64,000 bases of DNA from Elusimicrobiota bacterium (GCA_035606075.1 DATNGC010000060.1:1450-65449), one strand, 5' to 3'; numbered from the stretch's first letter, positions 13,079 through 32,730 are shown. The notes: generated from the letters alone by a model not told the origin. A program made the numbers and translations.

Positions 13079-14293
13079 TTAGCCGAGAATCTCGGAGACG
13101 GGCGCATCGGGGATGAGTCGCGTCAGAAACTCTCCGCAAGGCAAGCACGGAATTCCGTCTATGAGCATCCGGTCCTTGCCGCCGTAAAGAAGGCAAGCTT
13201 TCGCCTGGGGGTAGTCTTCGAGAAAGGCCTTCAGAGGGCGCACGTCCTTGGAGTGGACGCGGCGGGAAGACTTCACTTCGATCGCCAGGAACGTATCCTG
13301 CCCATAGACGATGAAATCGACCTCGACTCCGGATTTGGTGCGCCAGAAGGAAAGCTCGCGATCTTTCTGTCCGTAGGCGATCCAGGCGCGCAGCTGCTGA
13401 GCGACCAGGCCTTCCAAAGAGGCGCCTGAAATTTCTTCCGGGGCGTCCAGCGGTCCCCTGGGCCGCAGCGATCGGAATATGCCCGCATCCATGTAATAGA
13501 ACTTCGGATGCTGAACGAGATGTCTTTTCGCTTTCCGCGTGAAGACTTTGAGCCTGAATCCGAGAAGAAGGTCTTCTAATATCTCGACGAATCCTTCCAC
13601 GGCTTTCCGTCCCGCTTGGCATTCCCGCGCCACCTCCGACGTGTTGAGCAGCGAGGCATGGGAAAAGCTCATGGCTTCCAGGAACCGGGCGAAACTCCCG
13701 ATGTTGCGGACCAAGCCTTCTGCCTGAACCTCCTCCCGGAGGTAGAGCGAGACGTAGGACTTGAGCGTCTCCTCCGGTTCCTTGGCCGCCAGCACGAGGG
13801 GAAGTAGCCCCAATCGCAGGCTTTGCTCAAGATTGAAGTGGCTTCCAAGCTCGGCGGCTAGAAACGGGTGCAAGGTTTTGAAAAGCACGCGGCCCGCGAG
13901 GAGATTCACTCCCGTGCGCCGAAGCCTGCGGCTGCTGGAGCCCGTCAGGATGAACTGCACGGGACGGCGGGACTTTCCCTCGATCAACTGGTGAATGACG
14001 TCCAAGAGCGCTGGAATCTTCTGGATCTCATCGATGACGAATTGGGAGATTTTGGGGTTGCCCTCGACCAGGGCGCGCAACTGCTCCGGGTGGCTCACGT
14101 AAGTGCGGTAGGAGTCCGGATCGAGGAGATCCACGAACAGGCCGTGGGGGAATTTCTCCTTCAGCAGGGTGGATTTGCCCGTTCCCCTGGGGCCAAAGAG
14201 GAAAAAGCTGTCGGGGGGTGATTTGAAAAATCGCTTAACAGTATCCATAAACGCTTCCTTTTTGGAGGTAGTGGGGTAATTATATATCGCCAA
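13079..14293 (-). CDS. AAA ATPase with C-terminal DUF4143-type (restriction-endonuclease-like) domain
   Basis: Walker A FLFGPRGTGKSTLL and Walker B QFVIDEIQK. The C-terminal EVDFIVYG..LAIEVKSS is typical of the AAA_14/DUF4143 family. Confidence 0.8.
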   Translation of the reverse strand: MAIYNYPTTSKKEAFMDTVKRFFKSPPDSFFLFGPRGTGKSTLLKEKFPHGLFVDLLDPDSYRTYVSHPEQLRALVEGNPKISQFVIDEIQKIPALLDVIHQLIEGKSRRPVQFILTGSSSRRLRRTGVNLLAGRVLFKTLHPFLAAELGSHFNLEQSLRLGLLPLVLAAKEPEETLKSYVSLYLREEVQAEGLVRNIGSFARFLEAMSFSHASLLNTSEVARECQAGRKAVEGFVEILEDLLLGFRLKVFTRKAKRHLVQHPKFYYMDAGIFRSLRPRGPLDAPEEISGASLEGLVAQQLRAWIAYGQKDRELSFWRTKSGVEVDFIVYGQDTFLAIEVKSSRRVHSKDVRPLKAFLEDYPQAKACLLYGGKDRMLIDGIPCLPCGEFLTRLIPDAPVSEILG

Positions 14294-14326: not shown

Positions 14327-14749
14327 CTAACCCCATGTCGGTAACGCCGCGGCCATGGCTTGGGTCAAGCCAAACTTCTTGCGCCGCAGCTGGACGATGA
14401 TTCCGATGTCGGACGGGAGGTTGACGATAGTCCGGTCTGCGATATCGAGCGGTTGATGCTCACTTTTCATTTTGTTCCCGAGCGGAAGCCAGAGCGCCGC
14501 TTTGCTGATTTCGTAGAGCCTGGTTCTCTCGTTCAGCGGCGAATCTTTCCCGGCGAGTTTCAGTAGCTTGGCCATTATTTCTTCCGTCAAAGCGAGAGAC
14601 TCCAGAACGTCGCCGTCCTTCGTTCCGCGCACGTAATCGGTCTGCAGCAGGAGCGCCCCGCTTCCGATCACGCGCAGAGGGATTTTCTCTGCTTTCGCCG
14701 GAGTCCAAAGACGATCGATCTCGCGGAAGAATCCTTTGACGTCGCTCAT
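14327..14749 (-). CDS. Minimal nucleotidyltransferase-fold protein, C-terminally shorter paralogue of 24392..24985
   Basis: The pol-beta NTase motif hG[GS]x9-13DhD is present as RVIGSGALLLQTDYVRGTKDGDVLE. It aligns with IIGSAALMLQTEYERGTKDSDILE of the 197-aa paralogue. It overlaps the upstream XRE gene by 4 nt. Confidence 0.55.
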   Translation of the reverse strand: MSDVKGFFREIDRLWTPAKAEKIPLRVIGSGALLLQTDYVRGTKDGDVLESLALTEEIMAKLLKLAGKDSPLNERTRLYEISKAALWLPLGNKMKSEHQPLDIADRTIVNLPSDIGIIVQLRRKKFGLTQAMAAALPTWG

Positions 14750-15522
14750 CGTGCGGCCTCAAGGGCGCGGGCGAAATCGTCCACTTGGAATTCCGTGATG
14801 ATGCGCCATCGTTTGGAGATGTCGGAGCGGCTTTTGTGGACCGCGTCGAGGCTTTCCTGGCTGGTGATGCCGCCGTCCAGAAGATCCTCGGGCTCCTTCG
14901 CGTATTTCCGGAGGCTTTCGTGCTTCCAGGCGCTCAACACCGGCTCAAGCAGTATCTCCGCCTGCCTGTAAGCGAGAGTCCACTCGCGAGGAAGCTCTTT
15001 CTTCCGTTCGCGCCGGATGGCTTCCAGGGTATTCTCCAAGACCCAGCCAAGACGCCGTTCGAGCCCAGCTTCCGCCAACTGGGCTCGGAGCTTGTAGAGG
15101 TTGAGATTTCGGATGTTCTTGGCGATCACTGGGGCGATTCCCGTGATCTGCCGCGAGGAACCCGCCCCCACAAGAGTTTCGCGGATGGCGGAGAGGGCAT
15201 CTTTGACGGCGTCGCTCGGCAAAGTCTCCAACTCATAGAGATGGGAGGCTCCCAGGCGGGCTAGGGCGTTCTGCAGTTGATTCCCGTTCGAATCCTTTGT
15301 CTTCTTCTCGGCCGAGAAGTAATCGATCGGCACGTTGAAGTGAGTCAGGACGGCGAGCAATTGCTCGGCGGTAAAGGAGCCCTGGCCGCGCTCGAGTTCG
15401 GAGAGCCGGTTCTGCGATAGCTCGAGAAGTTTCGCCAGCGCCGCTTGCGTCCAGCGCCGTTCTTGACGCAAATGGCGAATCTTCTGGGAGATTGCAACCC
15501 TGTCGTGGTTGATAGTCGTCAT
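14746..15522 (-). CDS. XRE-family HTH protein with a C-terminal domain of about 190 aa and unknown function
   Basis: The N-terminal IRHLRQERRWTQAALAKLLELSQNRLSELERGQ is a Cro/C1-type HTH. By my rough alignment it is about half identical over its full length to 24969..25766. Confidence 0.75.
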   Translation of the reverse strand: MTTINHDRVAISQKIRHLRQERRWTQAALAKLLELSQNRLSELERGQGSFTAEQLLAVLTHFNVPIDYFSAEKKTKDSNGNQLQNALARLGASHLYELETLPSDAVKDALSAIRETLVGAGSSRQITGIAPVIAKNIRNLNLYKLRAQLAEAGLERRLGWVLENTLEAIRRERKKELPREWTLAYRQAEILLEPVLSAWKHESLRKYAKEPEDLLDGGITSQESLDAVHKSRSDISKRWRIITEFQVDDFARALEAAR

Positions 15523-15577
15523 ATCGGTCTATCGATTAAAGTATCGATATATCGATATTATAGGTTCTGCAATCGAT
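15523..15577. promoter_or_regulatory. Operator/promoter region with four ATCGAT palindromes
   Basis: ATCGAT occurs at 15531, 15543, 15551 and 15572, immediately upstream of the XRE start. The leader TCATATCGGT is shared with the paralogous locus at 25763-25772. Confidence 0.4.
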
Positions 15578-15744: not shown

Positions 15745-16443
15745 ATGACCATGCGCCCCAAGGAGAAGACCATCAGCTGGCGGAAGCGGAGTTCTTGGGT
15801 CGCCGTATTCGATGTCCTGGGCTTTAGCAACATGATGTCCGAGGCGGAGAAGGACTTTCCGCGCGCGCTTCTCACGAGCAAACTGGACGAGCTGATTCAG
15901 TCCCTGGACTCGGAGGAGAAGCGGCATGGGAAACTTGAGCACCTGATGTTCTCGGACACCCTGGTTCTCTTCGGGCCGACGTTCAAGAGCTACGCCTGGT
16001 TTCTTCTTCAGTGCAAGAATCTGATCAAGGACTCGATCAGGCTTCGCCTTCCTTTGCGTGGGGCTATCAGCTACGGAACCACCTTCTCCGCATCGAGGCA
16101 GCGCATGGTGATCGGGCAGCCGTTCCTGGACGCCTACCGCTATTGCGAAGATCAGAACTGGGTCGGGCTTCTCCTGACGCCACTCGCGGTCAAGACCGTG
16201 AGAGACAATGGCTTGGAGCCCCTTCGCCACGACTTTGTAGAAGGGCCCATCCCGCTAAGGGCTCAGCCGTCGGATGGGGCATTGGCCTACCGGTTTCAGA
16301 ACGGCCAGAGTTCCTTCGACAATCCCCTAATCCCTTGGCTCGAGGAGATGCAGCAATTTGCACCGGAGAACGCGAAGGGAAAGTTCACGCTGACCATCGA
16401 CCACATCAGAAGGCACCACCAAGGGCTTATACGGGGAGAGTAG
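15745..16443 (+). CDS. Minimal nucleotide cyclase / palm-domain protein (class III cyclase, GGDEF or mCpol-like)
   Basis: Three motifs in the order expected for the cyclase/polymerase palm fold: VAVFDVLGFSNMM, MFSDTLVLFG and LPLRGAISYGT. It is 232 aa with no other domain. Confidence 0.5.
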   Translation: MTMRPKEKTISWRKRSSWVAVFDVLGFSNMMSEAEKDFPRALLTSKLDELIQSLDSEEKRHGKLEHLMFSDTLVLFGPTFKSYAWFLLQCKNLIKDSIRLRLPLRGAISYGTTFSASRQRMVIGQPFLDAYRYCEDQNWVGLLLTPLAVKTVRDNGLEPLRHDFVEGPIPLRAQPSDGALAYRFQNGQSSFDNPLIPWLEEMQQFAPENAKGKFTLTIDHIRRHHQGLIRGE

Positions 16444-17653
16444 TTCCAGGACAAAGCGTCGGGGATATAGTCGGCTCGCCAGTTCTGACGAGGCGGCCAT
16501 CATCCCCCAGCCTAACCACTTCGAGGTCCGGGAACTCGTTGGTCAGCGGGAAGTCGGCCCAGGGATTCATGTAGAGGGTGAGTCGCGACTGCGGCATACA
16601 CCAGGGCCTGAGCCGGGACGCGATCAGGACACCGCTCACGCGCTTATATCTGGGACCGTCGTTCTGGCGCCAGAGGCCGTCCATTTTCCTAAAGAGCCGA
16701 GATTCCCGGCGACCGTCGGTATAGGTCTTGAACTCGACAGCCTCTTGCCCGTATAGAGCTTGCAGTGCGTCCTCGCTGTCAGTGCTCCCGTCCATTACGT
16801 TCACAGCGATGACGTAGGGCGTATTTAGCTTGCCGTATCGACGGGCCTTTGCGGCTAACATCTTGCGGAGTCTATGGCCCGTGCCGCTCCAGCCGCCGCC
16901 CATCTCCATCCCGATCGCTCGCCCAGGCTCGCCGCGAGCCTTGCCCTTCGGACAGGCAGTAAAATCAATGGCGCAGCCGTCCTGAACCCACTTTGTAACC
17001 GGCCAGTTCCTGAATCCGTTCTCTCCGGCGCTCTCGGCCTTGATCTTGTCGTAGTCTAGGCTGGCGAGCCAGGTCGTCAGGTGCTTTTTGATCGGACCGA
17101 TCGCGATGGCCTTCTTCAGCTCGCCCTGGTAATCAACGTGAAGGAAGAAGTCCTGCGACTTCAGATCGTCGATGGCATCCAATATCGGAGCCATCAGCCG
17201 CTCGTGCACGCTGGTCTCCTCGCTTGAGGTCAGCGTTCGGGCCTCAATAAAAACGCTCTTGCCAGCCGCCTCTATCTGGAAATCTACGCGGCGGTTGGTC
17301 GACCCAGACGAGGGATGGAGTGCGGGAGAATAGCCCATCTTGCGGAGCACCGAGTAGAGGAAGAGCTCGAAGAATGCGCCTGAGTGCGGCTCATCTCCTG
17401 ATCGGAAGCGAGCCCGCAGGTCAGCTTTGCCGGGCTCGGGGAAATCCGCGAACATGGCTTCGACAAGGCCCCGCGTCGCAGTGAAATCCGCGAGGGCGCT
17501 GCGGTTCAGGAAATGGAAGTGGGTTTCCGCTCGGCGCGAGTAATCGGTTTCGGTTCGCACTGCGTCATCAAAGAGTTTCATGCGTATGGGACGGTGGGGC
17601 GGAGGCGGGGGCAGGATAAAATCACCAGTCTGGATCCGAGGTGAGGGTTCCAT
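16427..17653 (-). CDS. Hypothetical protein, weak restriction-endonuclease-like core
   Basis: GAFFELFLYSVL..RRVDFQIEAAGKSVFIEARTL gives an E..D..E-A-R arrangement reminiscent of PD-(D/E)xK. It is the last gene of the RloC-like operon. The start may be ATG at 17581. Confidence 0.45.
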   Translation of the reverse strand: MEPSPRIQTGDFILPPPPPHRPIRMKLFDDAVRTETDYSRRAETHFHFLNRSALADFTATRGLVEAMFADFPEPGKADLRARFRSGDEPHSGAFFELFLYSVLRKMGYSPALHPSSGSTNRRVDFQIEAAGKSVFIEARTLTSSEETSVHERLMAPILDAIDDLKSQDFFLHVDYQGELKKAIAIGPIKKHLTTWLASLDYDKIKAESAGENGFRNWPVTKWVQDGCAIDFTACPKGKARGEPGRAIGMEMGGGWSGTGHRLRKMLAAKARRYGKLNTPYVIAVNVMDGSTDSEDALQALYGQEAVEFKTYTDGRRESRLFRKMDGLWRQNDGPRYKRVSGVLIASRLRPWCMPQSRLTLYMNPWADFPLTNEFPDLEVVRLGDDGRLVRTGEPTISPTLCPGTTLPV

Positions 17654-18875
17654 CCGGGTGGTGAAAAAACATCGAAGTGACCTTTACTGCCGCAAGGTCG
17701 ACCGAATAGTGATTAAAAGTCTGGCCTAAGGTAGTGCGATCACTCCACTGGCGAAGTTGGACCCGCCAGACTTCTCGGCCCTTCTCCAACCTCTTATCGA
17801 TCCACCAGCTAACATGAGTTCCCGGATGGGCATTCACCGCCCGCACGAAGGCCTCTGCTGCTGGCTCATAAGTGAGGACCATTCGCTTGACCCTGTCCTC
17901 ATCGGTATCCTGCCTATATGGGCCGATTTCCTCGCGGCTCACGCTTCCTTGGAACTGGTTCCCGTTCCAGTGATAGGTGGTTATCGTCAGATTCTGCGCG
18001 GTTTGCGGTAGATCGGGCTGCCGTTTGTAGCCCACGATCTCTTCGATGCCATCGCCATCTACGTCTTTGATCTCGATGCGCGGATAATCGCTATAGATCC
18101 CGCCACCGGTCAATTCCCTGAACCCATTCGTGTCCCACTGCCACACATGTATCCATTCACTTCGTTCACTAGTGGTTGAACGGGCAATCAATTCCGGACG
18201 ACCATCCCCGTTGATATCGCGTATCTGACAGTCGAGCGAGGATGCCGGTTGGTCTTCTAGTAGGGTGATGCTCGTTAGGCCCGATGGAGTTTGCCGCAAG
18301 CAGATCAGTTTGCAGGTCGACACATCTGTGTCAGCGCGTTGGATTGAAATGATCCGCTCCTTCACCCCGTCGCCATCGAGATCATGAAAGAGGTAGCGAA
18401 CAGCTTGGTCTTCCTTTTTTAGGATACCTAGCTCGCGCGTTGTGCCCTCAAGGCCTCGATCCAGCCAGCGGAGCAGAAGGTTGACGAATCCGATTATCTG
18501 TGCTGCCTCTGCCTTGGAATAATTAATAAATCGGTGCGTGGAAGCATTCCTGTTGAGCAGAAACACTCCAGAGAAAAGGCGTAAGAGGCCAAGTTGTTCG
18601 GCGGGGGTCTTCCCAAGTTGAAGAGGGCCGTCCTTGCCGAAGGCTTCCTCGGCCAGTTGTGTGCCAGTTCTCTCTGCTGGCGCAGCCAAGAGGCCGCGTA
18701 GGCGGCCTTCTAAGATCTTGAAAGCACGGATCACGGCGTCTTCTTCAAATGAAGGCGTGTTCAATGCTGGAAGGCAGTTCGCGCTCAGCTCGGGATCCCA
18801 GTGAGTTGGGGGCGTCTCGGCTGGCTCGCCAGAGTTTTTGGTAATCCAGTTAAGAAGCCGTAGTGCGGCGTTCAT
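17622..18875 (-). CDS. HEPN (Ymh/TIGR02391-like) domain fused to FG-GAP/VCBS-type repeats
   Basis: The N-terminal half has AFKILEGRLRGL and the Rx4H motif in LLNRNASTHRF. The C-terminal half has DLDGDGVKE, DINGDGRPE and DVDGDGIEE calcium-loop repeats. Confidence 0.6.
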   Translation of the reverse strand: MNAALRLLNWITKNSGEPAETPPTHWDPELSANCLPALNTPSFEEDAVIRAFKILEGRLRGLLAAPAERTGTQLAEEAFGKDGPLQLGKTPAEQLGLLRLFSGVFLLNRNASTHRFINYSKAEAAQIIGFVNLLLRWLDRGLEGTTRELGILKKEDQAVRYLFHDLDGDGVKERIISIQRADTDVSTCKLICLRQTPSGLTSITLLEDQPASSLDCQIRDINGDGRPELIARSTTSERSEWIHVWQWDTNGFRELTGGGIYSDYPRIEIKDVDGDGIEEIVGYKRQPDLPQTAQNLTITTYHWNGNQFQGSVSREEIGPYRQDTDEDRVKRMVLTYEPAAEAFVRAVNAHPGTHVSWWIDKRLEKGREVWRVQLRQWSDRTTLGQTFNHYSVDLAAVKVTSMFFHHPDGTLTSDPDW

Positions 18876-19951
18876 TTTCCGCGGGCCAGCTCGCTGGCGA
18901 ACTGAATAGCTGCCTCGTTTTTGCGAATAGCGGCGTAGAGGAACTTTTCAGCCTGTGCGAGGAATTCGTTTAGCTGGTGATACCTGGGAACGAGAACGGA
19001 TGGGGTTGCTGTCTTGGATAGGCGCTCAATAGATTTCCCAAGAGCGCAGACTCGGTGCCATGTGAAAGAAGGCTTGAAGCCATCGTAATCAGCTCTGACT
19101 CGAACTGTATAGTCATGTTCAAGGCGAATGTATTCATCTCTGGCTGGAGGGGTCCCTTCCGCAAATCCATATCCAGCTTCTCTTAGGGGAGTCGAAACGG
19201 AATCGTAGTCGTATTCGGAGTCGAATTCCTCTGACTTCAGAATCGTATCGAGAATTAGCTCAGGGACAGGGAGGTCGCGGAGGGTTGAGTGAATCATCTC
19301 CGCGTGGCGCGTATTTAGGTCACCGATAAGGGTCTCACGGAGGACAGGGAAAGAGAATTCTGTCCCTGCGACAAGCGCGACGGAAATCCGCTGAGCTGCC
19401 TCTGAATACTCCAGATAGGGCTTCGAGTAGCCGTAACCCTTAAGCCATGCAACGTGCTCTGGATTGCCACCGCACATGCCGCCATGTTCGTAGGTTGTCC
19501 TAAACATCCGACAGACGGTGTCGAGCAGGATCCGCGTGATGGCGCTATTTGCGCGAGGATTGTGCTCGCCGCGGTGGAACGCGACATTTCTATACGAGTG
19601 GCTGATTCGTAGAATCGCCGCATCACGTGCGGAGATGGAGTTGTCGACAAGCGTAAGGAAGCGGATCTTGCCGGCAAAATCGCGCTCAGCGCCTTTGCGG
19701 AGGTCCTCGGGTAATTTCGGTCGCAAGATGTGCTTTACGTAGTCCTCGCTATCAAAACGGGCTTGGCACCGATGGAACATGAGGATCTCGGCCAAGTTGT
19801 CGAGAACGATTAAGGCCAGTCGGATTCTGACAGGATCGTCAGAGAGGGCGTGGTCGCGGCAGATCTCAAGAGTGCGAGCAAACTCTTGGAACCGCTCGGG
19901 AGTGTTGATGTCCGGGGTCTCGGGTTCCCGAGCTCTGAGCGCTATTGGCAT
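18872..19951 (-). CDS. HEPN-like protein (Rx4H motif)
   Basis: SHSYRNVAFHRGEHN contains R-N-V-A-F-H in an all-helical N-terminal half. It overlaps the downstream gene by 4 nt and lies 15 nt after the ATPase gene. Confidence 0.5.
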   Translation of the reverse strand: MPIALRAREPETPDINTPERFQEFARTLEICRDHALSDDPVRIRLALIVLDNLAEILMFHRCQARFDSEDYVKHILRPKLPEDLRKGAERDFAGKIRFLTLVDNSISARDAAILRISHSYRNVAFHRGEHNPRANSAITRILLDTVCRMFRTTYEHGGMCGGNPEHVAWLKGYGYSKPYLEYSEAAQRISVALVAGTEFSFPVLRETLIGDLNTRHAEMIHSTLRDLPVPELILDTILKSEEFDSEYDYDSVSTPLREAGYGFAEGTPPARDEYIRLEHDYTVRVRADYDGFKPSFTWHRVCALGKSIERLSKTATPSVLVPRYHQLNEFLAQAEKFLYAAIRKNEAAIQFASELARGK

Positions 19952-19966
19952 CTGGCCTCGCCGCGT

Positions 19967-22327
19967 CTAGTGCCGGACAAAGGCCAGCGCCCGGTTTACA
20001 AAGCCAACCAGCTCGCCATCATTGATGGCCTGGGTTTGCCATGCAGGGTTCGTATCGTGGTGGAATCGATTGGCATACTCGACAAGGTCCCGAAGCTCGT
20101 CAATATTGGCTTGGTCGAGAATCTGCTGGGCCCCGCCCACGCGCTGATCGCAGAGGCCACGGAATGGCCCAAGCAACGTCCCCGGCGGGAAATGTTCTGG
20201 GCACGCCACCCGCAAGTAGCCTTCGAGGACCGGGCGGATGCTTTCAGCGACCTCTCGGCTGTTCACGCCACCGCCAGCGACGTGCTGGCGTAGAAGTGAA
20301 TGGCGCCGATCATATTCGGTGATGCAGTCCTGGTTGATATCCCAAGGTCGAATAGTCGAGCCCACCGCATCGCGTGCGACTTCGAGGGAAACTCGTTGGG
20401 CCGCGTCCGTGTGCTCCCAGACGCGACACAGAAAGGGTTTGCTGTGTGAGAGAACAATGACCTGCGCGGTTCGCCCGATGAGGCGCCGCACCTCTTGCGC
20501 AGTCGTCAGGGCTCTATGTTCGTCCAGGCTGGTCATCGGATCATCAATCACAATGATCTTTCCAGCGAGATTAGCGTCCTGGTCCAGGGACGCGAAGAAG
20601 AAAGCTAGGGCGAGAGAGTTCCGGTCGCCAGAGCTAAGGGTATTACGGAATGCATGAGCGCCCGCGACCGGCGCGCCACCAGCAACCGCAACCGGAGCGG
20701 CATTGATCACGATGTTATACGTGCAAGCAGGGCCTGAGCGCGTATTCACCGAGCCCATGTCGGAAATCCTGAACCCGGCGTTGAATCTGGCGAGGTAGGT
20801 ATTTATCGCAGCGTTATACGCAGGATAAGTCGCTTGCTGATACTGCCCAAGCGCCGTGCGCGCCTGATCGCGGAGTTGTTCAGTGGCGGTCTTTGCCGTC
20901 TTCTCTGTGAGATAATCTGCGCACAGGGGCGCCGTCGCTGCCGAATGGCGAGCCTTTGTAGCCTTGAGGCGGGCTACATCGCTGGCCAGCGCGGCCGGGT
21001 TGCCGGCAGCCGCCTGCTCTTGAACGATGCGGATCGCCGCGTTTATAGTCTGGAACCTGTCGCTGAGCGCCCTGACTGTTTGACGGTGTCCATCATAGGC
21101 CGTGATGGCGGCGTGGGCTTCAGGCGAAAGCGCCAGGGGTTCAAGTGGAGCTGCCTTTTTCGCTTCGAGAGCAGTCCGCACCGCGTCCGTGGCGGCGCGC
21201 CATGCGGCTCCCACCGCTGCCGTATCGATCTCGATTTCGGGCGCATCGGTGAACTGGGACCAGAATTGTCGCTGCTCGACCCAGACGCGGATCGCGCGCT
21301 CGAATTGAGAGGCCGTCTGGCCGCCATGCACTCGGCCGATCTCTAGGAGCATCGCCGCCACATCGTCCTTCAACTGGTGATAAGCTTCTCCGAAATAGAT
21401 GCGGTAATGATCAACGAGAGCTGATCCACGAAGGTCCTGCGCACAATACGGGCAAGTCGGCTGCGCGCCCTCAGCAGGCGGATGCGCGTGGGCGCGATTG
21501 AGGCCGTCGGCGACCCATGCCTCGCCTCCTGCGCCTAGAGTTCCCAAATGAGCCTGGACGGCTGCGGCTGCTTGAGCTTCAACAGCAGGGAGCGCCCGCC
21601 GAAGGAGCGTATCCAGCGCCTGTGGGTCCAAGGCCGGAAGGTCAAGAACCTGGAACAATGCGGTATTTCGGATACGCTCCTGCTGCTGCGCCGCCGTCAG
21701 ATTTCGTTCGGCCGTGAGAATAGCGGCGTCGATATCGGCGTTCGCGGGAAGATCGCAGAAGTCATCAACGGACAACGCGCCGCGCTCCGCGGCAGGAATC
21801 AAAGCCGCCTTGAGTCGAAGAGCGGTGTTGTGGGCCTCGATCTGTGCAACGTGGCCTTGCAGGGTGCGGTTCAACTGCACGCCCTGTGCGCCTAGGATCA
21901 GCTCGTTGAGGTTTTGGCGATGCTCCGAGCCGACTGTGAGACCGGAGTAGACGTTTTGCTCGACAAAAGCGTCGTCAAAAATCGCGACGTTTGTCAGGGA
22001 GCGACTCCAGGCGTTATTCTGGAACACAGCCGGAGCCCCGCCGACACAGTCAATTACGATGTGGGGGGCGTGGGCCGCGCCAAGGCGGCGTCGCTCTGCG
22101 ATGTGGAGGGGATCGCCCGTGCCCAGCGACCTAAGGATCGAAGCCAGGGTGGTCTTGCCGCGACCGTTTTCAGCGTAGACGAGGGTGAGCTTAGCTAGTG
22201 CCGGAGCACCGCCGCCGTTCACCGAGTCGAACTGCCCGGTGTTTCGTAAGAGCTGTATTCGGTTGATCAATCTGGACTCGTCCCTGGACTCGCCTATACT
22301 GCCTAAGACAGACCTTCCCCGACCCAC
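19967..22327 (-). CDS. AAA_13-type ABC/SMC-like ATPase with coiled-coil zinc hook, RloC/PrrC-like
   Basis: Walker A AENGRGKTTLAS, signature-like LSSGDRNSLALAFFFA and Walker B KIIVIDDPMTSLDEH. CPYC sits in the middle of a long Ala/Gln-rich helical insert. The roughly 150-aa C-terminal domain has RHSLLRQH and ANRFHHD. Confidence 0.7.
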   Translation of the reverse strand: MGRGRSVLGSIGESRDESRLINRIQLLRNTGQFDSVNGGGAPALAKLTLVYAENGRGKTTLASILRSLGTGDPLHIAERRRLGAAHAPHIVIDCVGGAPAVFQNNAWSRSLTNVAIFDDAFVEQNVYSGLTVGSEHRQNLNELILGAQGVQLNRTLQGHVAQIEAHNTALRLKAALIPAAERGALSVDDFCDLPANADIDAAILTAERNLTAAQQQERIRNTALFQVLDLPALDPQALDTLLRRALPAVEAQAAAAVQAHLGTLGAGGEAWVADGLNRAHAHPPAEGAQPTCPYCAQDLRGSALVDHYRIYFGEAYHQLKDDVAAMLLEIGRVHGGQTASQFERAIRVWVEQRQFWSQFTDAPEIEIDTAAVGAAWRAATDAVRTALEAKKAAPLEPLALSPEAHAAITAYDGHRQTVRALSDRFQTINAAIRIVQEQAAAGNPAALASDVARLKATKARHSAATAPLCADYLTEKTAKTATEQLRDQARTALGQYQQATYPAYNAAINTYLARFNAGFRISDMGSVNTRSGPACTYNIVINAAPVAVAGGAPVAGAHAFRNTLSSGDRNSLALAFFFASLDQDANLAGKIIVIDDPMTSLDEHRALTTAQEVRRLIGRTAQVIVLSHSKPFLCRVWEHTDAAQRVSLEVARDAVGSTIRPWDINQDCITEYDRRHSLLRQHVAGGGVNSREVAESIRPVLEGYLRVACPEHFPPGTLLGPFRGLCDQRVGGAQQILDQANIDELRDLVEYANRFHHDTNPAWQTQAINDGELVGFVNRALAFVRH

Positions 22328-22399: not shown

Positions 22400-22450
22400 C
22401 TAAATGGTTGCGGGGGCTGGATTTGAACCAGCGACCTCAAGGTTATGAGC
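22400..22450. repeat. att-type direct repeat: partial copy of the tRNA-Met 3' end
   Basis: 22408-22450 (43 nt) is identical to 54724-54766. 22400-22443 (44 nt, including ctaaatgg) is identical to 32687-32730. Confidence 0.85.
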
Positions 22451-22613
22451 TTCACCCTTTTTTCTCGACGAGGAATTTTATTTCTTCGTCGAGAGGCCTT
22501 CCCGCATCCACGCGGTTGAACGACTCAACCTTGTGGTCCTGCGGATACTATAGCATGTCGCGTTCAAAATGCGGCAGTAGCCCAGATTGAATTTGGAGCG
22601 ATCTGCTGGTTCG

Positions 22614-24356
22614 CTATCCGCGGGGAGCCATCATCGCCCGTTTGCTGAGCACGAGCAATTCTCCGTTCTCGACTCGCTCGGCGTCGGATGGCCGAAGGGT
22701 ATAGGAAAATCTTGGCCTGTTGTCTTCGGCCGTCAGAAGGCGAGTGCCAATCAGCTGTTCATCGCAATAGAGATTCAAGAAATAGATTCCTGGCCGTTGG
22801 ATAGCGATAACCATTTCCCCTGTGCCGGGAGTGCTAATGCAACTGGATCGGGTTTCGATGGTTACGGTGTTGACCGTTTGTTCTTCTCGAGAGATCGCGT
22901 CAATCAGGGCAACTCGTAGGCTGTGCTTGCCAGGCAAGGCCCGGATCGAACTCGCGATTGAAAGTCTTAGTAGGAGGGGGAACTTTTTTTGGTATGCGAC
23001 GTTGAACTCATTGATGAACGCGAGGTCGTTCTCGCCATGAACGGCAATTTGACAGATGATGAAGTAGACGAGTAAGACGGGACGCTCTTTCGTCAGGAAC
23101 GCATCGTGGCAAGCAGCATGCTCATCGAGGAATCGTTGGTTCGTGGTTTTGGTGAACTCGGCCCGTGCCCCTGGATCTTCAGGGATTTGTCCTTTGAGTT
23201 CTCCGAAGTAGAGCGCCCGCCGTCCAAGAAGCTGGCCTTCAATCCGAGCCTCGAGAAAGGCGGGTCCAGGCTTCTTCATCGGTAACCTGAGTTTGAAGAT
23301 GAGTTCGACATCTTCCGGGAGAAATTGAGAATTCACCTTTCCCGAGGCGACGATTGTTTCTTCACTGTCTTGAAGAAGTGCCATCTCAAACGATCTCTCT
23401 CCAGTCGCTCCCCAATATGCGACCGAAGTCATGAGCTCCGCCTCGTAGGGGAATTCAGGCGTGCCAAGAATCGTCATCGGTCGAGTGAACTTGAGCATGG
23501 TGGGACGTGTCTCGACTCCTTGAGACGTGAGTAGATAGTTTAGATGCCACTTCGGAGCTTTGGGGGTTTCGAGATCTTTAAAGTCATAGAGGCGTTTTTC
23601 GTGCGGCCCTTCGGAGAGAATCTTAGTAGGCTCGATGAGGGGAGTATCTTTCTTTGCTACCAAGTCACGCTGTGTCCAGCCAGTCTTGCCGAAACCCATG
23701 GATTGAGCTCGTGGTGCAGCAGTTGGATCGAGATCGATGTAACCGTAATCCAGGGGGCTAACTCCCTTCGGCGTGATTAAGAGTATCTGGAACATCCCTC
23801 CGACGGTATCGATTCCATGCTTGCGAAGTTCTGTTTCGAGGCCGGGAATCAGTTCGTCGGCCTTCTCTTTGATCGTCTTGCCGGAAGCCTCGATCGTGGC
23901 GAAGCTTCTGTCGAGGAAAGCCTGTGCCGGCGCGCCGGACCCGATGACGACGTAGCCGTCGATTCTGTTCGCGATGAAATCCGGGGATCGGAAGACCCAG
24001 GCGCCGATGTGTCCCCCGGCTTCACGCCCAGTAAGAATCATGCCGACGCCGCTATCTCGCCGGGTTCTTGACTTGTGGAGTGCGTAATAGTGCTTTGCGA
24101 TGCGCGGGATCTCCGCGGCGACTTTCCGCAGGATTTGAAGTTTTGGGTCTTGATGGAAGCGCTTTCGAAGCTGACGGACGATAGTGTCTATCGCTTCGAC
24201 ATCTCCTGCGTATCCGAGAACCTGGTTTGTTCCGATAGCGACGATCTTCTGGAGGTTGTCTTGGAAGGTCGGGGCCCCGCCTTCGCCCCATGTCGCCCTT
24301 GAATCGGAGATTAGAACCACGCCATCAGCAAATCGGCACGCCGCAACCATGGTCAT
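22614..24356 (-). CDS. Proteasome-beta/HslV-like Ntn-hydrolase domain fused to a C-terminal region of about 380 aa and unknown function
   Basis: The N-terminus M-TMVAACRFADGVVLISDSRATW...NLQKIVAIG...LGYAGDVEAIDTIV matches the Thr1 / DGVVLxxDxRxT / K / GxAGxxAD pattern of proteasome beta and HslV subunits. It starts 36 nt after the NTase stop. Confidence 0.6.
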   Translation of the reverse strand: MTMVAACRFADGVVLISDSRATWGEGGAPTFQDNLQKIVAIGTNQVLGYAGDVEAIDTIVRQLRKRFHQDPKLQILRKVAAEIPRIAKHYYALHKSRTRRDSGVGMILTGREAGGHIGAWVFRSPDFIANRIDGYVVIGSGAPAQAFLDRSFATIEASGKTIKEKADELIPGLETELRKHGIDTVGGMFQILLITPKGVSPLDYGYIDLDPTAAPRAQSMGFGKTGWTQRDLVAKKDTPLIEPTKILSEGPHEKRLYDFKDLETPKAPKWHLNYLLTSQGVETRPTMLKFTRPMTILGTPEFPYEAELMTSVAYWGATGERSFEMALLQDSEETIVASGKVNSQFLPEDVELIFKLRLPMKKPGPAFLEARIEGQLLGRRALYFGELKGQIPEDPGARAEFTKTTNQRFLDEHAACHDAFLTKERPVLLVYFIICQIAVHGENDLAFINEFNVAYQKKFPLLLRLSIASSIRALPGKHSLRVALIDAISREEQTVNTVTIETRSSCISTPGTGEMVIAIQRPGIYFLNLYCDEQLIGTRLLTAEDNRPRFSYTLRPSDAERVENGELLVLSKRAMMAPRG

Positions 24357-24391: not shown

Positions 24392-24985
24392 CTACTCCTG
24401 CATCCAGTCCGGAAGTTCGATAGAGGATTCCTTAACACCGAGATTGTCCCGTTCGACTCGGTTCAGATTCGCGATATACTTCGGAAAGTCTTCCGCGAAT
24501 CCCGAAGTCGAATGGAAATCGATGGCGGCTTTGAATCGTGTGACCAGTTTCTGGTGATCCAGGAGTTGCTTGGAGGCCAGTGCCGCGATGTCTGCCGCGT
24601 CATTTTGGTTGAAGCGTTTAAGCTTACTGACAGCGACGTCAGTCAAATCGAGAACCTCGACCGTGAAATTCTTCAGCGGTAAATCTGGAACAGCCTGGAA
24701 GAGCGGGGCTTGAGGCCAGAATAGAATCGCGCGGGTCACGACCTCAATATACATCCGATATTTCACGAACAGCGGAGCTTTGGGGCCGGCGAGGGCAAGC
24801 AATTGTTCTCGGATGGCCGGCGTGATCTCGGCGGCCTCAAGGATGTCGCTATCCTTGGTTCCTCGTTCATACTCGGTTTGCAACATGAGCGCGGCTGAGC
24901 CGATGATTCTCAAGCGGATAGGCTCGCTGCCAACAGGTTTCCACTTCTCGTCGATTTCGGTGAGAAATCTATGGATGAGTTTCAC
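24392..24985 (-). CDS. Minimal nucleotidyltransferase-fold protein (197 aa)
   Basis: RIIGSAALMLQTEYERGTKDSDILE fits the pol-beta NTase motif. It overlaps the XRE gene by 17 nt. Confidence 0.6.
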   Translation of the reverse strand: MKLIHRFLTEIDEKWKPVGSEPIRLRIIGSAALMLQTEYERGTKDSDILEAAEITPAIREQLLALAGPKAPLFVKYRMYIEVVTRAILFWPQAPLFQAVPDLPLKNFTVEVLDLTDVAVSKLKRFNQNDAADIAALASKQLLDHQKLVTRFKAAIDFHSTSGFAEDFPKYIANLNRVERDNLGVKESSIELPDWMQE

Positions 24986-25766
24986 GGGCTGCCCTCAACG
25001 CTTGTATAAAGTCATCTGTCTGAATTCGCGTCGTGATTCCCCAGCGTTTCGAGATCTCGGAACTCTCGCGGCGGGCCTCGGCGAGGGATTTGTCGCTGGC
25101 AATGTCATGGTCCAGCACGTCGCTGAAATCTACGAGCGAAGCCCTGAGCGCACGAACCCTCCGGCCTGGCCAGTCGAGAGAAAGAAACGACTTCAGGATT
25201 ACTTCCGCCCGATGGTACTTGAGTTTCCATGCATGCGGCAGAGGCTGCGAGAGCTCGTGATGGATGGCCTCAAGAGTGTTTTCCAGCGCCCACCCCAAAC
25301 GTTGCCCTAAGCCGATCTCGAGGAACTGTGCTTGGAGGGTTTTTAAGTTGATTCGGTTGATGTTGTCGACGAGTACGGGCGCGAGCGCCGCGATTTGCCG
25401 CGACGATTCTGCGGAGATCAGCGCTTCACGCACGGCATCAGTGACTTCTTTGAAAAGCACAGAGGGTATGGTGTCAGCCGGTTCGAATAGATGCGACGCG
25501 CCGAATCGCGCGAGGGCGCTTTGGATTTGGTCTTGCCCTTCCGTTTTCGCGGGGGAAAAGTAGTCGATCGGCACGTTGAAGGTCTTGAGAATCGTCAGCA
25601 GGTGATCTGCTGTGAACGACCCCTGACCGCGCTCCAGTTCGGAGAGATAGTTCTGTGAGATGCCGAGCAATTCGGCGAGCTGTTTCTGGGTCCAGCGGCG
25701 GTCTAGGCGCAGAGTGCGGATGCGCTCGCCGATGGAGTGATGTCGCCGGGTCTGTTTGATAGTCAT
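24969..25766 (-). CDS. XRE-family HTH protein, paralogue of 14746..15522
   Basis: The HTH is IRTLRLDRRWTQKQLAELLGISQNYLSELERGQGSFTADHLL. It shares C-terminal blocks (RLGWALENTLEAI, ISKRWGI) with the island C copy. Confidence 0.75.
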   Translation of the reverse strand: MTIKQTRRHHSIGERIRTLRLDRRWTQKQLAELLGISQNYLSELERGQGSFTADHLLTILKTFNVPIDYFSPAKTEGQDQIQSALARFGASHLFEPADTIPSVLFKEVTDAVREALISAESSRQIAALAPVLVDNINRINLKTLQAQFLEIGLGQRLGWALENTLEAIHHELSQPLPHAWKLKYHRAEVILKSFLSLDWPGRRVRALRASLVDFSDVLDHDIASDKSLAEARRESSEISKRWGITTRIQTDDFIQALRAARETHP

Positions 25767-25808
25767 ATCGGTATGGCGATTAATATATCGCTATAGCGAT
25801 ATTATTGC
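25767..25808. promoter_or_regulatory. Operator/promoter region with overlapping GCGAT/ATCGC inverted repeats
   Basis: The sequence is atcggtatggcgattaatatatcgctatagcgatattattgc. The inverted repeats are gcgat-taatat-atcgc and atcgct-at-agcgat. The leader tcatatcggt is shared with 15519-15528. Confidence 0.4.
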
Positions 25809-25881
25809 TTGTAAACAGTTATTTTTCAAGGGGAATTATGTTGACAGTTTGGCAGGCAATCGTGTAGGCTTGAGCCTTGGC

Positions 25882-26814
25882 TTATACTGCCTCAAGCCTA
25901 CACGAAGTGCCTCCTACAAGCAACTGATTCACAGGCGAAAACTTCTTATGCTGCTCGGCCACGTCCCGGCTCGCCAGGTTCACATAGCGTCGGGTCATCT
26001 CCAGTGAAGAGTGCCCCAGAATTTCCTGTAGGCTGAACGAGTCGCCGCCGTTGCGGATGTAGAGCACGGCGAAGGTGTGGCGCAGGGTGTGGGGGGAAAG
26101 GCGCACGCCCTCGATGCCCGCGGCGCGGCCGTAGCGCAGGATGAGCTTGCGCGCCTTGCTTCGGCATATGGGCTTGCCGGTCTTGCCCAAGAAGAGGCGG
26201 TCCGACTTGATCGGGCTATTCGACCGCGATTGGGCGTATTCGAGCAGGGCCTGGGCGGTCTTAGCTGAGAACGGGACGCTGCGCTCCTTGCGGCCCTTGC
26301 CCATCACGATCGCGTTGCAGTTGAGCCAGTCCACGCGGCCGGCCTCGAGCGACAGGAGTTCGGAGATGCGCAGGCCGGAGTCGAGCATGAGCATCATCAT
26401 CGCGCGGTCTCTCAGGCCATGGGACGTGCGTGCGTCCGGCCCGGCGATCAGGCGCGAGGCCTGCTCGGGGCTGAACGGGCGGATGAGGACGCGCTCACGC
26501 CGCGGCCGTTCAACGCGCTCCATGGGGTCGTCCGCGATCAGACCCTCGCGCTTCCAGAATCGGAAGGCGCAGCGCAGGCCGCCGTAAGTGCGGGCGACGG
26601 TTTCGGATGCCTGTCCGCGCCGCCTCAGATCGGCCAGGTGCTCGCGCAGGAGCGCCGGCGTCGCGTCGCGCGCATCGCGCGCGCCACGGGCCTCCAGGAG
26701 CGTCCTGAGCGCGCGCAGGATGTGTCGGTACCATGCGACGCTGCCCTCGGCCAAGTTCAGCGCGGCGCAGCGCGCCAAGAACGTCTCGTTCGCGGCTTCG
26801 AGGGTGATGTTCAG
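25882..26814 (-). CDS. Tyrosine recombinase (XerC/XerD-like integrase)
   Basis: Catalytic blocks are LMLDSGLRISELLSL, HTLRHTFAVLYIRNGGD and LGHSSLEMTRRY. It is collinear with 31616..32584. The start is uncertain: no ATG, GTG or TTG lies near the expected N-terminus, and 26814 is a CTG overlapping the upstream stop. The 462-aa track ORF extends into the upstream gene. Confidence 0.75.
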   Translation of the reverse strand: MNITLEAANETFLARCAALNLAEGSVAWYRHILRALRTLLEARGARDARDATPALLREHLADLRRRGQASETVARTYGGLRCAFRFWKREGLIADDPMERVERPRRERVLIRPFSPEQASRLIAGPDARTSHGLRDRAMMMLMLDSGLRISELLSLEAGRVDWLNCNAIVMGKGRKERSVPFSAKTAQALLEYAQSRSNSPIKSDRLFLGKTGKPICRSKARKLILRYGRAAGIEGVRLSPHTLRHTFAVLYIRNGGDSFSLQEILGHSSLEMTRRYVNLASRDVAEQHKKFSPVNQLLVGGTSCRLEAV

Positions 26815-27620
26815 GCGGCAACCTCCTGACGAGCGGGCTCTTTGATCACGGGTAGGTTGAACGTCTTCCGGTAGCCGTTGGTCGTCTGCCGCAGGTACTG
26901 GCACCGTCCCAACTGCTCCCGGAATTCGGCGAGGCTTGCCGCGTAGGTGCTCACCGACTGGGATTTTTCCATCAACGAGAGGAGGTATTCCACCCCGGTC
27001 GGCCAGCCGGTTAGGTACAGAATCATCCCTTCCGCCCATCGGCTTTCGCGTTTGTAGAGCAGTTCGCGGTAGCGTTCGCGCGACTTGGCCGTCAGCTCCA
27101 CTTCGATCGAGTGCCATTGGCTTTGCGCGTCCTGCACCAGCAAATCCGGGCAAGTCAGCCTGGAATCGCTTCTGCGCGGGACTTGCCGGCGCCGTAGGTT
27201 CTCCCAGATCTGCCGCGTAGCTTGGACTTTCAGCCCCAGTAGTTCGCTCATGACCAGCCCAACGCCGCATACCGTTATCTCGTGACGCAGATAAGCTTCG
27301 CCGAGGCTCCGGATCGGATGCAAATAACTCGCCCGCTGGTTCTCACGCAGACACTCATGCCCCCGGCCCGTCAGCATATAGACCTGCCAGTAATTGATCG
27401 CCCGGAACGTCTTCACCAAGCCCGCCAATTCCAAAGTCCGCAACCGCTTATAGGCCCCGCCCCAATGATCCTCACGCCTCAAGTCATTGAAAAATAGCCT
27501 CATCCGCTCCGCCTCAGCCGCCGCGTTCCTGAACAGAAACCCATCCAACTGCCCAAGTCCCATCACGCCCCACTTCTCCAAAGCTTCCAGCACCGCCACG
27601 TCTCTCTTCGTTAATTCCAT
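26811..27620 (-). CDS. Replication-relaxation family protein
   Basis: The N-terminal winged-helix pattern is LTKRDVAVLEALEKWGVMGLGQLDGFLF ... YKRLRTLELAGLV. A later DLLV..SIEVELTAKS nuclease-like block follows, as in the Replic_Relax family. Confidence 0.6.
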   Translation of the reverse strand: MELTKRDVAVLEALEKWGVMGLGQLDGFLFRNAAAEAERMRLFFNDLRREDHWGGAYKRLRTLELAGLVKTFRAINYWQVYMLTGRGHECLRENQRASYLHPIRSLGEAYLRHEITVCGVGLVMSELLGLKVQATRQIWENLRRRQVPRRSDSRLTCPDLLVQDAQSQWHSIEVELTAKSRERYRELLYKRESRWAEGMILYLTGWPTGVEYLLSLMEKSQSVSTYAASLAEFREQLGRCQYLRQTTNGYRKTFNLPVIKEPARQEVAA

Positions 27621-27800
27621 TCTCTTCCCTTCCTCTCTTCTTCAGAAAATTCATCTTCCAAAACCAAATAACTCACCACTCACTTCAAGAAAACTCATCT
27701 CTTCCTCAACCCAAACCCATCTCCCACTCCACCCAAACTCCTCTCTCAATCTAAAATCTAAATCTCCTTCCCAATCCCCTTGCACTCCCCAGCCCACCGT

Positions 27801-27857
27801 CTTCCCGACCCCTCACCCACAACCAATCATCATGGTTGGGGGCGAGGGGTCGGGAAG
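27801..27857. other. Long imperfect hairpin (23 of 25 positions paired, 7-nt loop), ori/oriT or leader structure candidate
   Basis: cttcccgacccctcacccacaacca-atcatca-tggttgggggcgaggggtcgggaag. I paired it by hand; mismatches are at 27815/27843 and 27819/27839. Confidence 0.5.
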
Positions 27858-28482
27858 CGTCATCGGCCCTATCGATGACGAGGTGGGCGCCCGGGGACTG
27901 CAAAAGTCAGCATTTTTTATCCTGATGTCGTTTATGCTCCTCCTCCAACGCGTTAGCGGGTCTGTTGGCGGTCCCAGCCGCCTCTACATATCATTCGCGC
28001 GAGCCAGTCCAATCGTTAGCAGAGCCCTCACTTACATATGCGTTTGATCCGGACCGATTCCCTCCATTCCCAGGGGCCCCCTACTTACATATGCGTTTGA
28101 AAAGACCATTTTCCGACAAAAAATCACGTGGCGTGATAAATTCCCCGCGTACGCCGGCTACTTTCTTATTTCGGCGAGGGAGCCAGTTCCGCACATGACG
28201 CCCCTACTCTCTATTCGCGCGAGACCCCGAAATCCGCACAAGATTCCGCGCCTGCCTGGTCTGTTGTGCCCATAAGATTGCCGGGCTAATTGCTTCGGCA
28301 CGCGGGAAGGGGCAAGGCGTAAAGGCGCGGACGTTGAGGTCGTGCGGGGGACGGCGGCTTTGGCCGCCGCGGCGCATTGGTAGGAACTAGGGGGTAGGCG
28401 GGGCTCTCAAGCTGCCTGGCGCCGGCCAGCGCCGGTCAAACGCGTGATTTCGGTGCTGGCCCGCACTCCTTCACGGGTGCCT

Positions 28483-31615: not shown

Positions 31616-32584
31616 TCATCCGACGAGGACTCTTCGCCGGCCTCCAGGCAGCAGCCCAAGTCGGTCCATCGGGCTGAATCGTTGGTGCAGTAGCGCCACG
31701 TCGCGATTCGCCAAGCCGACATAGACCTTCACCATGTCGAGCGTTGAATGCCCGAGAATCTGCTGCAAGCTGAACGCATCGCCGCCGTTCATGATGTATT
31801 GGGTCGCGAACGTGTGGCGCATCGTATGCGGCGAGACGCGGACCCCTTGGATGCCGGCTTGAGCGCCCAGACGGTGGAACTCCTTGCGGAGCAGGTATCG
31901 GCAACAGCGTCCGCCGAAGCGGCTGACGAAGAACAAATCCTGGCCTGGGATGTCGCCGCGGCGGGCCATGTAGCTCCACAGCGCGCGCTTTGAGTTGAGG
32001 CCGAAGGGGACCTGGCGCTCCTTGCCGCCCTTGCCCATGACGCGCAGGACGCCGGCCTGAAAGTCGATCGCGTCCTTTCGAAGCCCGATGACTTCCGAGA
32101 TTCGAAGGCCGCTGTCGAAGATCAGGACCATGATGGTCCAGAGACGGTGCTCGTCGTAACGCTTCTGATTGCATTGCGCGAGGAGCAATCGCACTTGGTC
32201 AATCGAGAGCGGCTTGATGAGCTTGCGCTCCATTCGCGGCTTCTCGACCAACTGACACGGATTCTTTGGGATCATCCGTTCGCGCGCGAGGAAGCCGAAG
32301 AAGCAGCGCAAGCCGCCGTAGGTGCGCGCGACCGTGACCGTGCTGTTGCCGCGCGCGCGCATGTCCTCAAGGTGCTGGCGCAGAAGCGTCGGCGTCACAG
32401 CGCGGGCCGTCGTCACGTCTTGCGTTTCGAGGAACCGCTCGAACATCTTGAGGATCTGTTTGTACCACGCGAGCGTGCCGACCGAGAGGTTCTGCGCCTG
32501 GCATCGAAGCCGGAATGCTTCCGAGGCCGAGCCTAGCGTCACTTCGAATTGAGCGGCGGGACGGAACGCAAGCGCTTTTCTCAT
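31616..32584 (-). CDS. Tyrosine recombinase / integrase of element A
   Basis: Catalytic blocks are FDSGLRISEVIGL, HTMRHTFATQYIMNGGD and LGHSTLDMVKVY. It starts about 100 nt from the att repeat. Confidence 0.85.
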   Translation of the reverse strand: MRKALAFRPAAQFEVTLGSASEAFRLRCQAQNLSVGTLAWYKQILKMFERFLETQDVTTARAVTPTLLRQHLEDMRARGNSTVTVARTYGGLRCFFGFLARERMIPKNPCQLVEKPRMERKLIKPLSIDQVRLLLAQCNQKRYDEHRLWTIMVLIFDSGLRISEVIGLRKDAIDFQAGVLRVMGKGGKERQVPFGLNSKRALWSYMARRGDIPGQDLFFVSRFGGRCCRYLLRKEFHRLGAQAGIQGVRVSPHTMRHTFATQYIMNGGDAFSLQQILGHSTLDMVKVYVGLANRDVALLHQRFSPMDRLGLLPGGRRRVLVG

Positions 32585-32686: not shown

Positions 32687-32730
32687 CTAAATGGTTGCGG
32701 GGGCTGGATTTGAACCAGCGACCTCAAGGT
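32687..32730. repeat. att-type direct repeat: partial copy of the tRNA-Met 3' end
   Basis: 32695-32730 (36 nt) is identical to 54724-54759 and 22408-22443. The 8 nt upstream (ctaaatgg) is shared only with the 22400 copy. Confidence 0.85.

Follow-up and report, generated by a model that had tools for sequence, protein, structure and literature searches.

RloC proteins are anticodon nucleases that excise the wobble nucleotide. They are defined by ABC ATPase motifs, a CX2C hook within a coiled-coil insert, and a C-proximal Arg-X3-Glu-X36-52-His triad, which in the Geobacillus kaustophilus protein is formed by R692, E696, and H737 (Davidov & Kaufmann 2008, PMC2610378). These proteins are 658-897 aa long, frequently start with GUG or UUG, are linked to restriction-modification (R-M) genes in 8 of 72 cases, and have been found to be self-sufficient experimentally in a heterologous host (PMC2610378). 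The ATPase and zinc hook of RloC-type proteins restrain the tRNase, and DNA damage or loss of restriction leads to anticodon damage (PMC2610378; PMC3458546). PrrC of the EcoprrI type Ic R-M system, in comparison, is only ~340-420 aa long, lacks a coiled-coil/zinc-hook insert, and always resides in an hsd operon. The Ymh family (PF09509) has been classed as a HEPN family, and its fusions to paraMORC ATPases, found in R-M neighborhoods, have been described as functional analogues of RloC and PrrC (Anantharaman et al. 2013, PMC3710099). PDC-S06 is a single-gene AAA_13 ATPase call of PADLOC, an unvalidated bioinformatic candidate with a single locus tag in genome surveys. Defense-cargo hotspots flanked by conserved genes occur in P2/P4-like prophages and satellites. 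Here, we analyzed a 64,000-nt stretch of DNA from an Elusimicrobiota bacterium (GCA_035606075.1, DATNGC010000060.1:1450-65449; hereafter the window, to which all coordinates refer), in which four genes are packed head-to-tail into a block of 5.9 kb. An earlier note on this DNA had read the block as one operon encoding an RloC-like zinc-hook ATPase (gene 1), two HEPN proteins (genes 2 and 3), and a nuclease-like protein (gene 4), a combination in which it recognized no named system. Our comparison of the four gene families suggests that the block is probably a stack of independently inherited defense-type modules and not one four-component machine, because the families differ more than 100-fold in size and never co-occur in the ~100 loci compared.

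The neighborhoods of the four families were compared in two sets of loci, namely 19 loci with relatives of genes 2-4 (L001-L017, L101, and L102) and 83 loci with relatives of gene 1 (L018-L100; the 3 closest genomic and 80 metagenomic). As far as public data allow, no pair of the four families was found together in the 19 loci, and tblastn with all window proteins revealed no gene 1 relative in them. Likewise, none of the 83 gene 1 loci contained a relative of gene 2, gene 3, gene 4, or the 232-aa open reading frame (ORF) that converges on gene 4. The families also differ markedly in abundance. A full scan of 1.84 billion representative proteins yielded 1,327 clusters for gene 1 at E<=1e-30, nearly all of ~760 aa and collinear with gene 1, whereas 5.8 billion proteins contained just 5 relatives of gene 2 (a family of six sequences with gene 2 itself), 4 full-length relatives of gene 3, and 22 relatives of gene 4. 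In addition, the GC content at third codon positions (GC3) falls into three blocks, with values of 0.66 for gene 1, 0.60 for genes 2 and 3, and 0.72 for gene 4 together with 0.77 for the 232-aa ORF. The locus thus appears to consist of one common and known single-gene defense, RloC, ahead of three rare, independently distributed genes.

The four minus-strand ORFs are present where the earlier note had placed them, at 19967-22327 (786 aa), 18872-19951 (359 aa), 17622-18875 (417 aa), and 16427-17653 (408 aa), and they are real genes and not chance ORFs, since homologues exist for all four. Two of the three junctions stood as described. A 15-nt spacer, which holds a GGCGAGG Shine-Dalgarno-like stretch, separates genes 1 and 2, and genes 2 and 3 share a 4-nt ATGA overlap. 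However, the 32-nt overlap claimed for genes 3 and 4 probably stems from choosing the longest ORF, because the relatives of gene 4 align from M25 (MKLFD; ATG at 17581) and several of them begin exactly at this residue. The real junction is likely a 40-nt gap, with gene 4 starting at ATG 17581. A similar correction applies to gene 1. Its family consensus begins at residue 20, which corresponds to a TTG at 22270 preceded by AGGGACGAG, and the GTG that opens the longest ORF at 22327 lies only 4 nt past a terminator-like hairpin and T-run. The first 19 codons of the longest ORF are therefore probably untranslated, and the start at TTG 22270 gives a protein of 767 aa. A search of the region from the hairpin to the gene 1 start revealed no sigma-70-like promoter.

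Several observations weigh against the reading of separate modules. Between genes 1 and 2 and between genes 2 and 3, no convincing terminator or promoter was found. Co-expression of genes 1-3 is likely because these two junctions are tight and lack such signals, and the tight spacing suggests that the three genes are probably co-transcribed here. Moreover, genes 2 and 3 may have arrived together, their GC3 being equal, and functional interplay among these genes in this genome is possible. The families of genes 2 and 3 are thinly sampled, with three independent contexts each. Finally, wherever the gene upstream of a gene 3 relative is visible, it encodes a nucleoside triphosphatase (NTPase) and its 3' end is closely coupled to that relative, a coupling that could be a partnership and not chance stacking. 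In a stack of independent modules, co-transcription of genes 1-3 would reflect the dense packing of the island rather than functional dependence; tight packing and overlapping stop and start codons in a defense island do not alone define a system.

The same features bear on a rival explanation, in which all four genes, or genes 1-3 as a minimum, have co-evolved as a single multi-HEPN defense system. The RloC ATPase would then detect infection and either cooperate with the other proteins or control them. Such a system would account for the shared strand, the 15-nt spacer, the 4-nt overlap, and the lack of an internal terminator. It would place up to three HEPN-type domains in one transcription unit, and multi-pronged HEPN/ABC arrangements have been described (PMC3710099). 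Nevertheless, we consider it very unlikely, given that no two of the families meet in ~100 loci, that family sizes lie more than 100-fold apart, that gene 4 orthologues (66-84% identity) sit behind four other cassettes or none, that the gene 3/4 overlap is probably not real, and that RloC sufficed by itself in a heterologous host (PMC2610378). The earlier note had named three outcomes that would speak against its own system reading, and two of them were found: the genes do not co-occur elsewhere in the loci compared, and the lead gene already bears a name, being assignable to the single-gene RloC and to PDC-S06 of PADLOC. The third outcome, a lack of AAA_13 or HEPN similarity, was not what profile searches returned, as AAA_13 was found in gene 1 and a HEPN family (Hypoth_Ymh) in gene 3.

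All motifs quoted in the earlier note are present, and each is invariant in the alignment of its own family, except that D124 of gene 4 is nearly invariant. In gene 1, the ABC ATPase head is split by a presumably helical insert bearing the CPYC hook, and the C-terminal domain carries R698-x3-E702...H757, so the description of an RloC-like protein with a zinc hook was correct. Pfam identified AAA_13 at 9e-27, and the best PADLOC match was PDC-S06 at 1.2e-58 over aa 21-702, while PrrC matched at 3e-9 in the signature/Walker B region only; a weak SMC_N match covers aa 236-635. In the family alignment of 32 sequences, the invariant residues include G57 and K58 of Walker A, S565, G567, and D568 of the signature, D595 and D596 of the Walker B/D-loop, and the switch histidine H628. 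The hook C292-P293-x-C295, which falls roughly halfway from Walker A (58) to the signature (565), is likewise invariant, as are R698, E702, and H757 of the C-terminal triad, with H756 nearly so. Comparing gene 1 with published RloC proteins, both have the CX2C within a long insert that separates Walker A from the signature, the C-terminal Arg-X3-Glu...His, and a non-ATG start (TTG or GTG in gene 1). They also agree in lying on mobile DNA, with no R-M link for gene 1 here. However, the distance from Glu to His in gene 1 is 54 residues (53 to H756) as opposed to the published 36-52, other HEPN-signature genes directly follow gene 1 in the window, and the nuclease activity of gene 1 is a prediction. 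Gene 1 is, by its sequence features, an ordinary RloC-family member with each published sequence hallmark save for the slightly long Glu-His spacing. It shares the ABC ATPase motifs and the logic of the anticodon-nuclease triad with PrrC, but at 767-786 aa and with its insert it differs from PrrC in size and architecture, and no hsd genes were found within the island segment. The similarity to PDC-S06 does not bear on genes 2-4.

The surroundings of gene 1 relatives are consistent with a protein that acts by itself. Among genomic relatives, the three closest (56-59% identity) each stand alone as a low-GC gene flanked by housekeeping or HNH/methylase genes. Among metagenomic relatives, the closest (57%) lies directly upstream of a type I hsdR gene and overlaps its start, which is the original restriction-linked context of RloC. 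Downstream of gene 1 relatives, about half of the 28 informative loci have no same-strand ORF within 200 nt, and the remaining downstream ORFs are mutually dissimilar, so no recurrent downstream partner of RloC-family genes was found in these loci. As the first module, gene 1 would be self-contained. If it works as Geobacillus RloC does, the Rad50-like ABC ATPase and the zinc hook would hold the C-terminal HEPN-type tRNase off, and phage-linked DNA damage or loss of restriction would trigger its release. The freed tRNase would then cut tRNA anticodon loops, resulting in a stop of translation and abortive infection.

At the other end of the block, gene 4 is clearly the companion of the convergent 232-aa ORF, which lies outside the interval of the earlier note, and not of genes 1-3. 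The 232-aa ORF is 84-86% identical to the ORF at the same position in L010, L011, and L101 (tblastn), and the pair as a whole is conserved at 78-86% identity. In contrast to this constant partner, the genes upstream of gene 4 relatives (66-84% identity) vary. One relative stands alone among housekeeping genes, whereas another follows DUF3800/DUF5677 with a 4-nt overlap. In L010, the relative comes after LexA, a PDC-M30A-like gene, and DUF5131, and in L012 after a CBASS-like operon with TIR, CD-NTase, and Cap15 domains. In L101, the slot is empty, and the gene 4 relative directly follows a divergent backbone gene. L010, L012, and L101 have a common backbone of two or three tyrosine recombinases, an HNH_5 gene, and a 96-aa gene, and they differ only between the 96-aa gene and the gene 4 relative, indicating that gene 4 and the 232-aa ORF form a constant edge next to a slot of changing content. 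The GC3 values fit this division into a border and a cargo of genes 1-3. Similar to the hotspots of P2/P4-like elements, a conserved border is thus combined with switching upstream content (empty, CBASS-like, LexA/PDC-M30A-like, DUF3800/DUF5677, or RloC with genes 2 and 3). Unlike them, the element carries a tyrosine-recombinase pair or trio and an HNH_5 gene, and its integrase part is missing from this segment of the window. Gene 4 and the 232-aa ORF would accordingly constitute the last module, which borders the cargo slot of an integrase-bearing element family, and RloC, gene 2, and gene 3 would fill that slot in this genome. The pair could be used as a landmark for variable defense cargo in integrative elements.

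The nuclease-like core ascribed to gene 4 was weakly supported. In the AlphaFold2 (AF2) model (pLDDT 85), an alpha-beta-beta-alpha-beta core (H90-105, E125-129, E132-141, H145-162, and E169-177) carries E96, D124, and E137, of which E96 and E137 are invariant in the family; K269 is invariant elsewhere in the protein. However, no motif lysine is conserved, since the position two residues past E137 is an arginine in close relatives only and is otherwise variable. The fold matches were also weak. Foldseek searches of PDB and BFVD gave mostly PD-(D/E)xK proteins as top matches, with E values of 0.015-0.8 over 50-130 residues, including Cas4 SSO0001, Hjc, EcoRV, R2 endonuclease, SfsA, DdmD, and phage entries annotated as restriction enzymes, Mrr, or DUF2726. 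The modeled core may thus be PD-(D/E)xK-like, as these weak fold matches suggest. The 232-aa ORF had no match in Pfam, PADLOC, or PDB. By eye, its FDVLGFS, FSDT, and RGAISYG stretches recall class III nucleotide-cyclase/palm motifs.

Gene 3 encodes a HEPN domain protein by both profile and motif, which agrees with the earlier assignment. PF09509 (Hypoth_Ymh) matches at 3.8e-15 with 56.2 bits against a cut-off of 25, the Ymh family has been classed as HEPN (PMC3710099), and R109, N110, and H114 of the signature are invariant in the gene 3 family. An FG-GAP_3 repeat follows at aa 220-281 (8e-9). Gene 3 thus resembles the Ymh and paraMORC-Ymh proteins in its HEPN domain, its intact RNxxxH, and its defense neighborhood beside NTPase genes. 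It differs from them in that the HEPN domain is fused to an FG-GAP/VCBS-like region and not to an ATPase, and in its family of 4 relatives only. In L014 and L015, the gene 3 relative begins 4 nt past the Hachiman helicase gene HamB (PADLOC 1.5e-249), and an HNH gene of 250 aa, similar to the N-terminus of SAVED-HNH/PDC-M68A effectors, follows after 7 nt. In L016, the relative overlaps by 4 nt the end of a gene for a 1,383-aa NACHT-type STAND NTPase, whose NTPase domain starts at aa 49 and which has no N-terminal effector domain of its own. We also considered whether the large ORFs upstream of gene 3 relatives are diverged fusions of RloC and gene 2, and rejected this possibility, as one is HamB and the other the STAND NTPase.

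These contexts raise the main alternative, namely that the gene 3 family is a portable add-on effector or regulator, functionally coupled to whichever defense NTPase lies upstream (RloC with gene 2, HamB, or STAND), while gene 4 and its partner are an unrelated border. In all three contexts with a visible upstream gene, gene 3 or its relative lies within 4 nt of that gene or overlaps it. The STAND protein has no effector domain of its own, and fusions of Ymh to paraMORC ATPases are described as analogues of RloC and PrrC (PMC3710099). On the other hand, the contexts number only three, and the upstream gene is an NTPase in two of them, since the immediate neighbor of gene 3 in the window is gene 2. 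Hachiman and RloC already carry their own effectors, and in L014 and L015 the next gene, 7 nt further on, is an unrelated HNH gene, which suggests that genes are tightly stacked in such islands in general. We therefore regard the add-on explanation as unlikely.

Gene 2 encodes an all-helical protein whose HEPN-like nature is unproven, the assignment being based on its motif and the position of that motif in the structural model. The Rx4H motif pointed out in the earlier note is present, and R121, N122, and H126 (RNVAFH in gene 2) are invariant in the family. In the AF2 model (pLDDT 83, pTM 0.77), RNVAFH ends the helix formed by residues 108-126, ahead of a loop to helix 132-153. The invariant D51 and E55 are located in helix 40-66, which three short inserted helices separate from helix 108-126. 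This arrangement fits the published description of HEPN domains, in which the motif ends helix 3, an acidic residue lies in helix 2, and an insert separates helices 2 and 3. However, neither profile nor fold searches supported the assignment. No match was obtained in Pfam (E<=10, all six family members), NCBIfam, or PADLOC. PDB was likewise searched without a match, both by profile and with Foldseek, and hhalign detected no similarity to the Ymh alignment of gene 3; these are weak negatives, given how far HEPN families diverge. Gene 2 may represent the first member of a new HEPN-like family. Its relatives occur in different settings. One with 61% identity is convergent with a DEAD/N6_N4_Mtase/ResIII cluster and has only small ORFs upstream, one with 42% identity comes after a 414-aa or a 91-aa ORF, and one with 40% identity precedes a reverse transcriptase. 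In a stack of independently inherited modules, genes 2 and 3 would be two separate HEPN RNase-type effectors of abortive infection. Their predicted RNase activities most likely operate independently, and the C-terminal helical half of gene 2 and the FG-GAP region of gene 3 would serve as sensor or regulator parts. The two very rare HEPN-signature families are thus candidates for stand-alone abortive-infection toxins.

A further alternative holds that genes 2-4 are not defense genes at all, for example maintenance or regulatory genes of a decayed integrative element, and that only RloC is immune-related. No significant PADLOC match was obtained for genes 2, 3, and 4 (gene 4 weakly, at ~1e-3), the pair of gene 4 and its partner behaves as element backbone and not as cargo, and none of the families of genes 2, 3, and 4 was found in the viral contigs searched. 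We nonetheless judge this explanation extremely improbable. The catalytic HEPN motifs, invariant in both the gene 2 and the gene 3 family, point to an RNase function, and RNase activity of this type in prokaryotes is overwhelmingly tied to conflict (PMC3710099). In addition, the neighbors of the relatives are R-M-like, Hachiman, STAND, reverse-transcriptase, and HNH genes. A combined proposal is also conceivable, albeit doubtful, in which the gene 3 family is a portable effector behind defense NTPases, gene 2 represents a new HEPN-like family, and gene 4 with the 232-aa ORF either marks an undescribed cargo slot of tyrosine-recombinase elements or is itself a two-gene defense/addiction module.

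Table 1 Coordinates of the block, its convergent partner, and the adjacent tRNA fragment in the window
Feature	Coordinates	Strand	Basis
Convergent 232-aa ORF; 3' end overlaps gene 4 by 17 nt	15745..16443	+	tblastn partners
Gene 4, 384 aa from M25; putative N-terminal restriction-endonuclease-like core and C-terminal alpha/beta domain	16427..17581	-	AF2, Foldseek
Gene 3, Ymh-type HEPN (aa 26-138) and FG-GAP/VCBS-like C-terminal region	17622..18875	-	PF09509, FG-GAP_3
Gene 2, 359 aa, all-alpha; HEPN-like judging from motif and helix topology	18872..19951	-	Invariant RNxAFH, AF2 model
Gene 1, RloC-family protein of the anticodon-nuclease type (predicted)	19967..22270 (longest ORF to 22327)	-	AAA_13, PDC-S06, family-invariant residues
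tRNA-fMet 3' fragment (integration scar)	22400..22455	-	Copy of 32687-32730; matches intact tRNA-Met 54724-54797

The modules would have been stacked head-to-tail in an island of low GC content that arose by integration at a tRNA-fMet gene. The lower GC content reported previously was confirmed, with values of 0.54-0.62 across ~13 to 32.5 kb compared with ~0.69 outside. The proposed tRNA integration hotspot holds as well, even though ARAGORN detected a single tRNA in the window, the minus-strand tRNA-Met(CAT) at 54724-54797. Exact 44-nt copies of the 3' end of this tRNA are present at 22400-22443 and 32687-32730, both on the minus strand. The copy at 22400-22443 extends to ~22455, includes the anticodon loop, and is located directly upstream of gene 1. 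A terminator-like hairpin comes after the intact tRNA-fMet and after each of the two scars; the one following the scar at 22400-22455 lies at ~22360-22332, immediately upstream of gene 1. The copies look like the traces of a tandem array of islands at one tRNA-fMet integration site. Integrase genes are located at ~53580-54125, after the intact tRNA, and at 31616-32584, after the scar at 32687-32730, whereas the scar at 22400 leads straight into gene 1. The four-gene block therefore lies in the oldest, integrase-less segment of this putative array, because integrases follow the tRNA and the first scar while gene 1 follows the second. Near the low-GC boundary at 13 kb, no third tRNA scar, direct repeat, or att-like repeat was found.

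The toxin-antitoxin (TA)-like modules mentioned in the earlier note correspond to two paralogous HTH_3 and DUF6036 nucleotidyltransferase pairs on the minus strand, at 14327-15522 and 24392-25766, whose proteins are 52% and 46% identical. The pairs occupy equivalent positions in two island segments, and the spacing from pair to pair (10,244 nt) is close to that from scar to scar (10,287 nt). Their upstream regions, at 15518-15566 and 25762-25810, are 82% identical and rich in TATCGATA palindromes, and a near-consensus promoter lies at 15585-15557 upstream of the first pair. One copy in the pairs (140 aa) appears truncated.

Other genes and structures of the island were noted in passing. Between the second tRNA scar and a TA-like pair, a minus-strand gene at 22614-24356 encodes a protein of 580 aa that combines a proteasome-subunit-like (Ntn hydrolase) domain at its N-terminus with DUF6941 at its C-terminus, an architecture that is unusual for a defense island and has no PADLOC match. 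Just past the 5' end of the integrase gene at 25882-27270, a near-perfect hairpin or palindrome of ~60 nt is present at 27798-27859, which scores on several miRNA precursor models on both strands, below thresholds. At the low-GC boundary of the island, the minus-strand gene at 13079-14293 encodes an ATPase with AAA_14 and DUF4143 domains.

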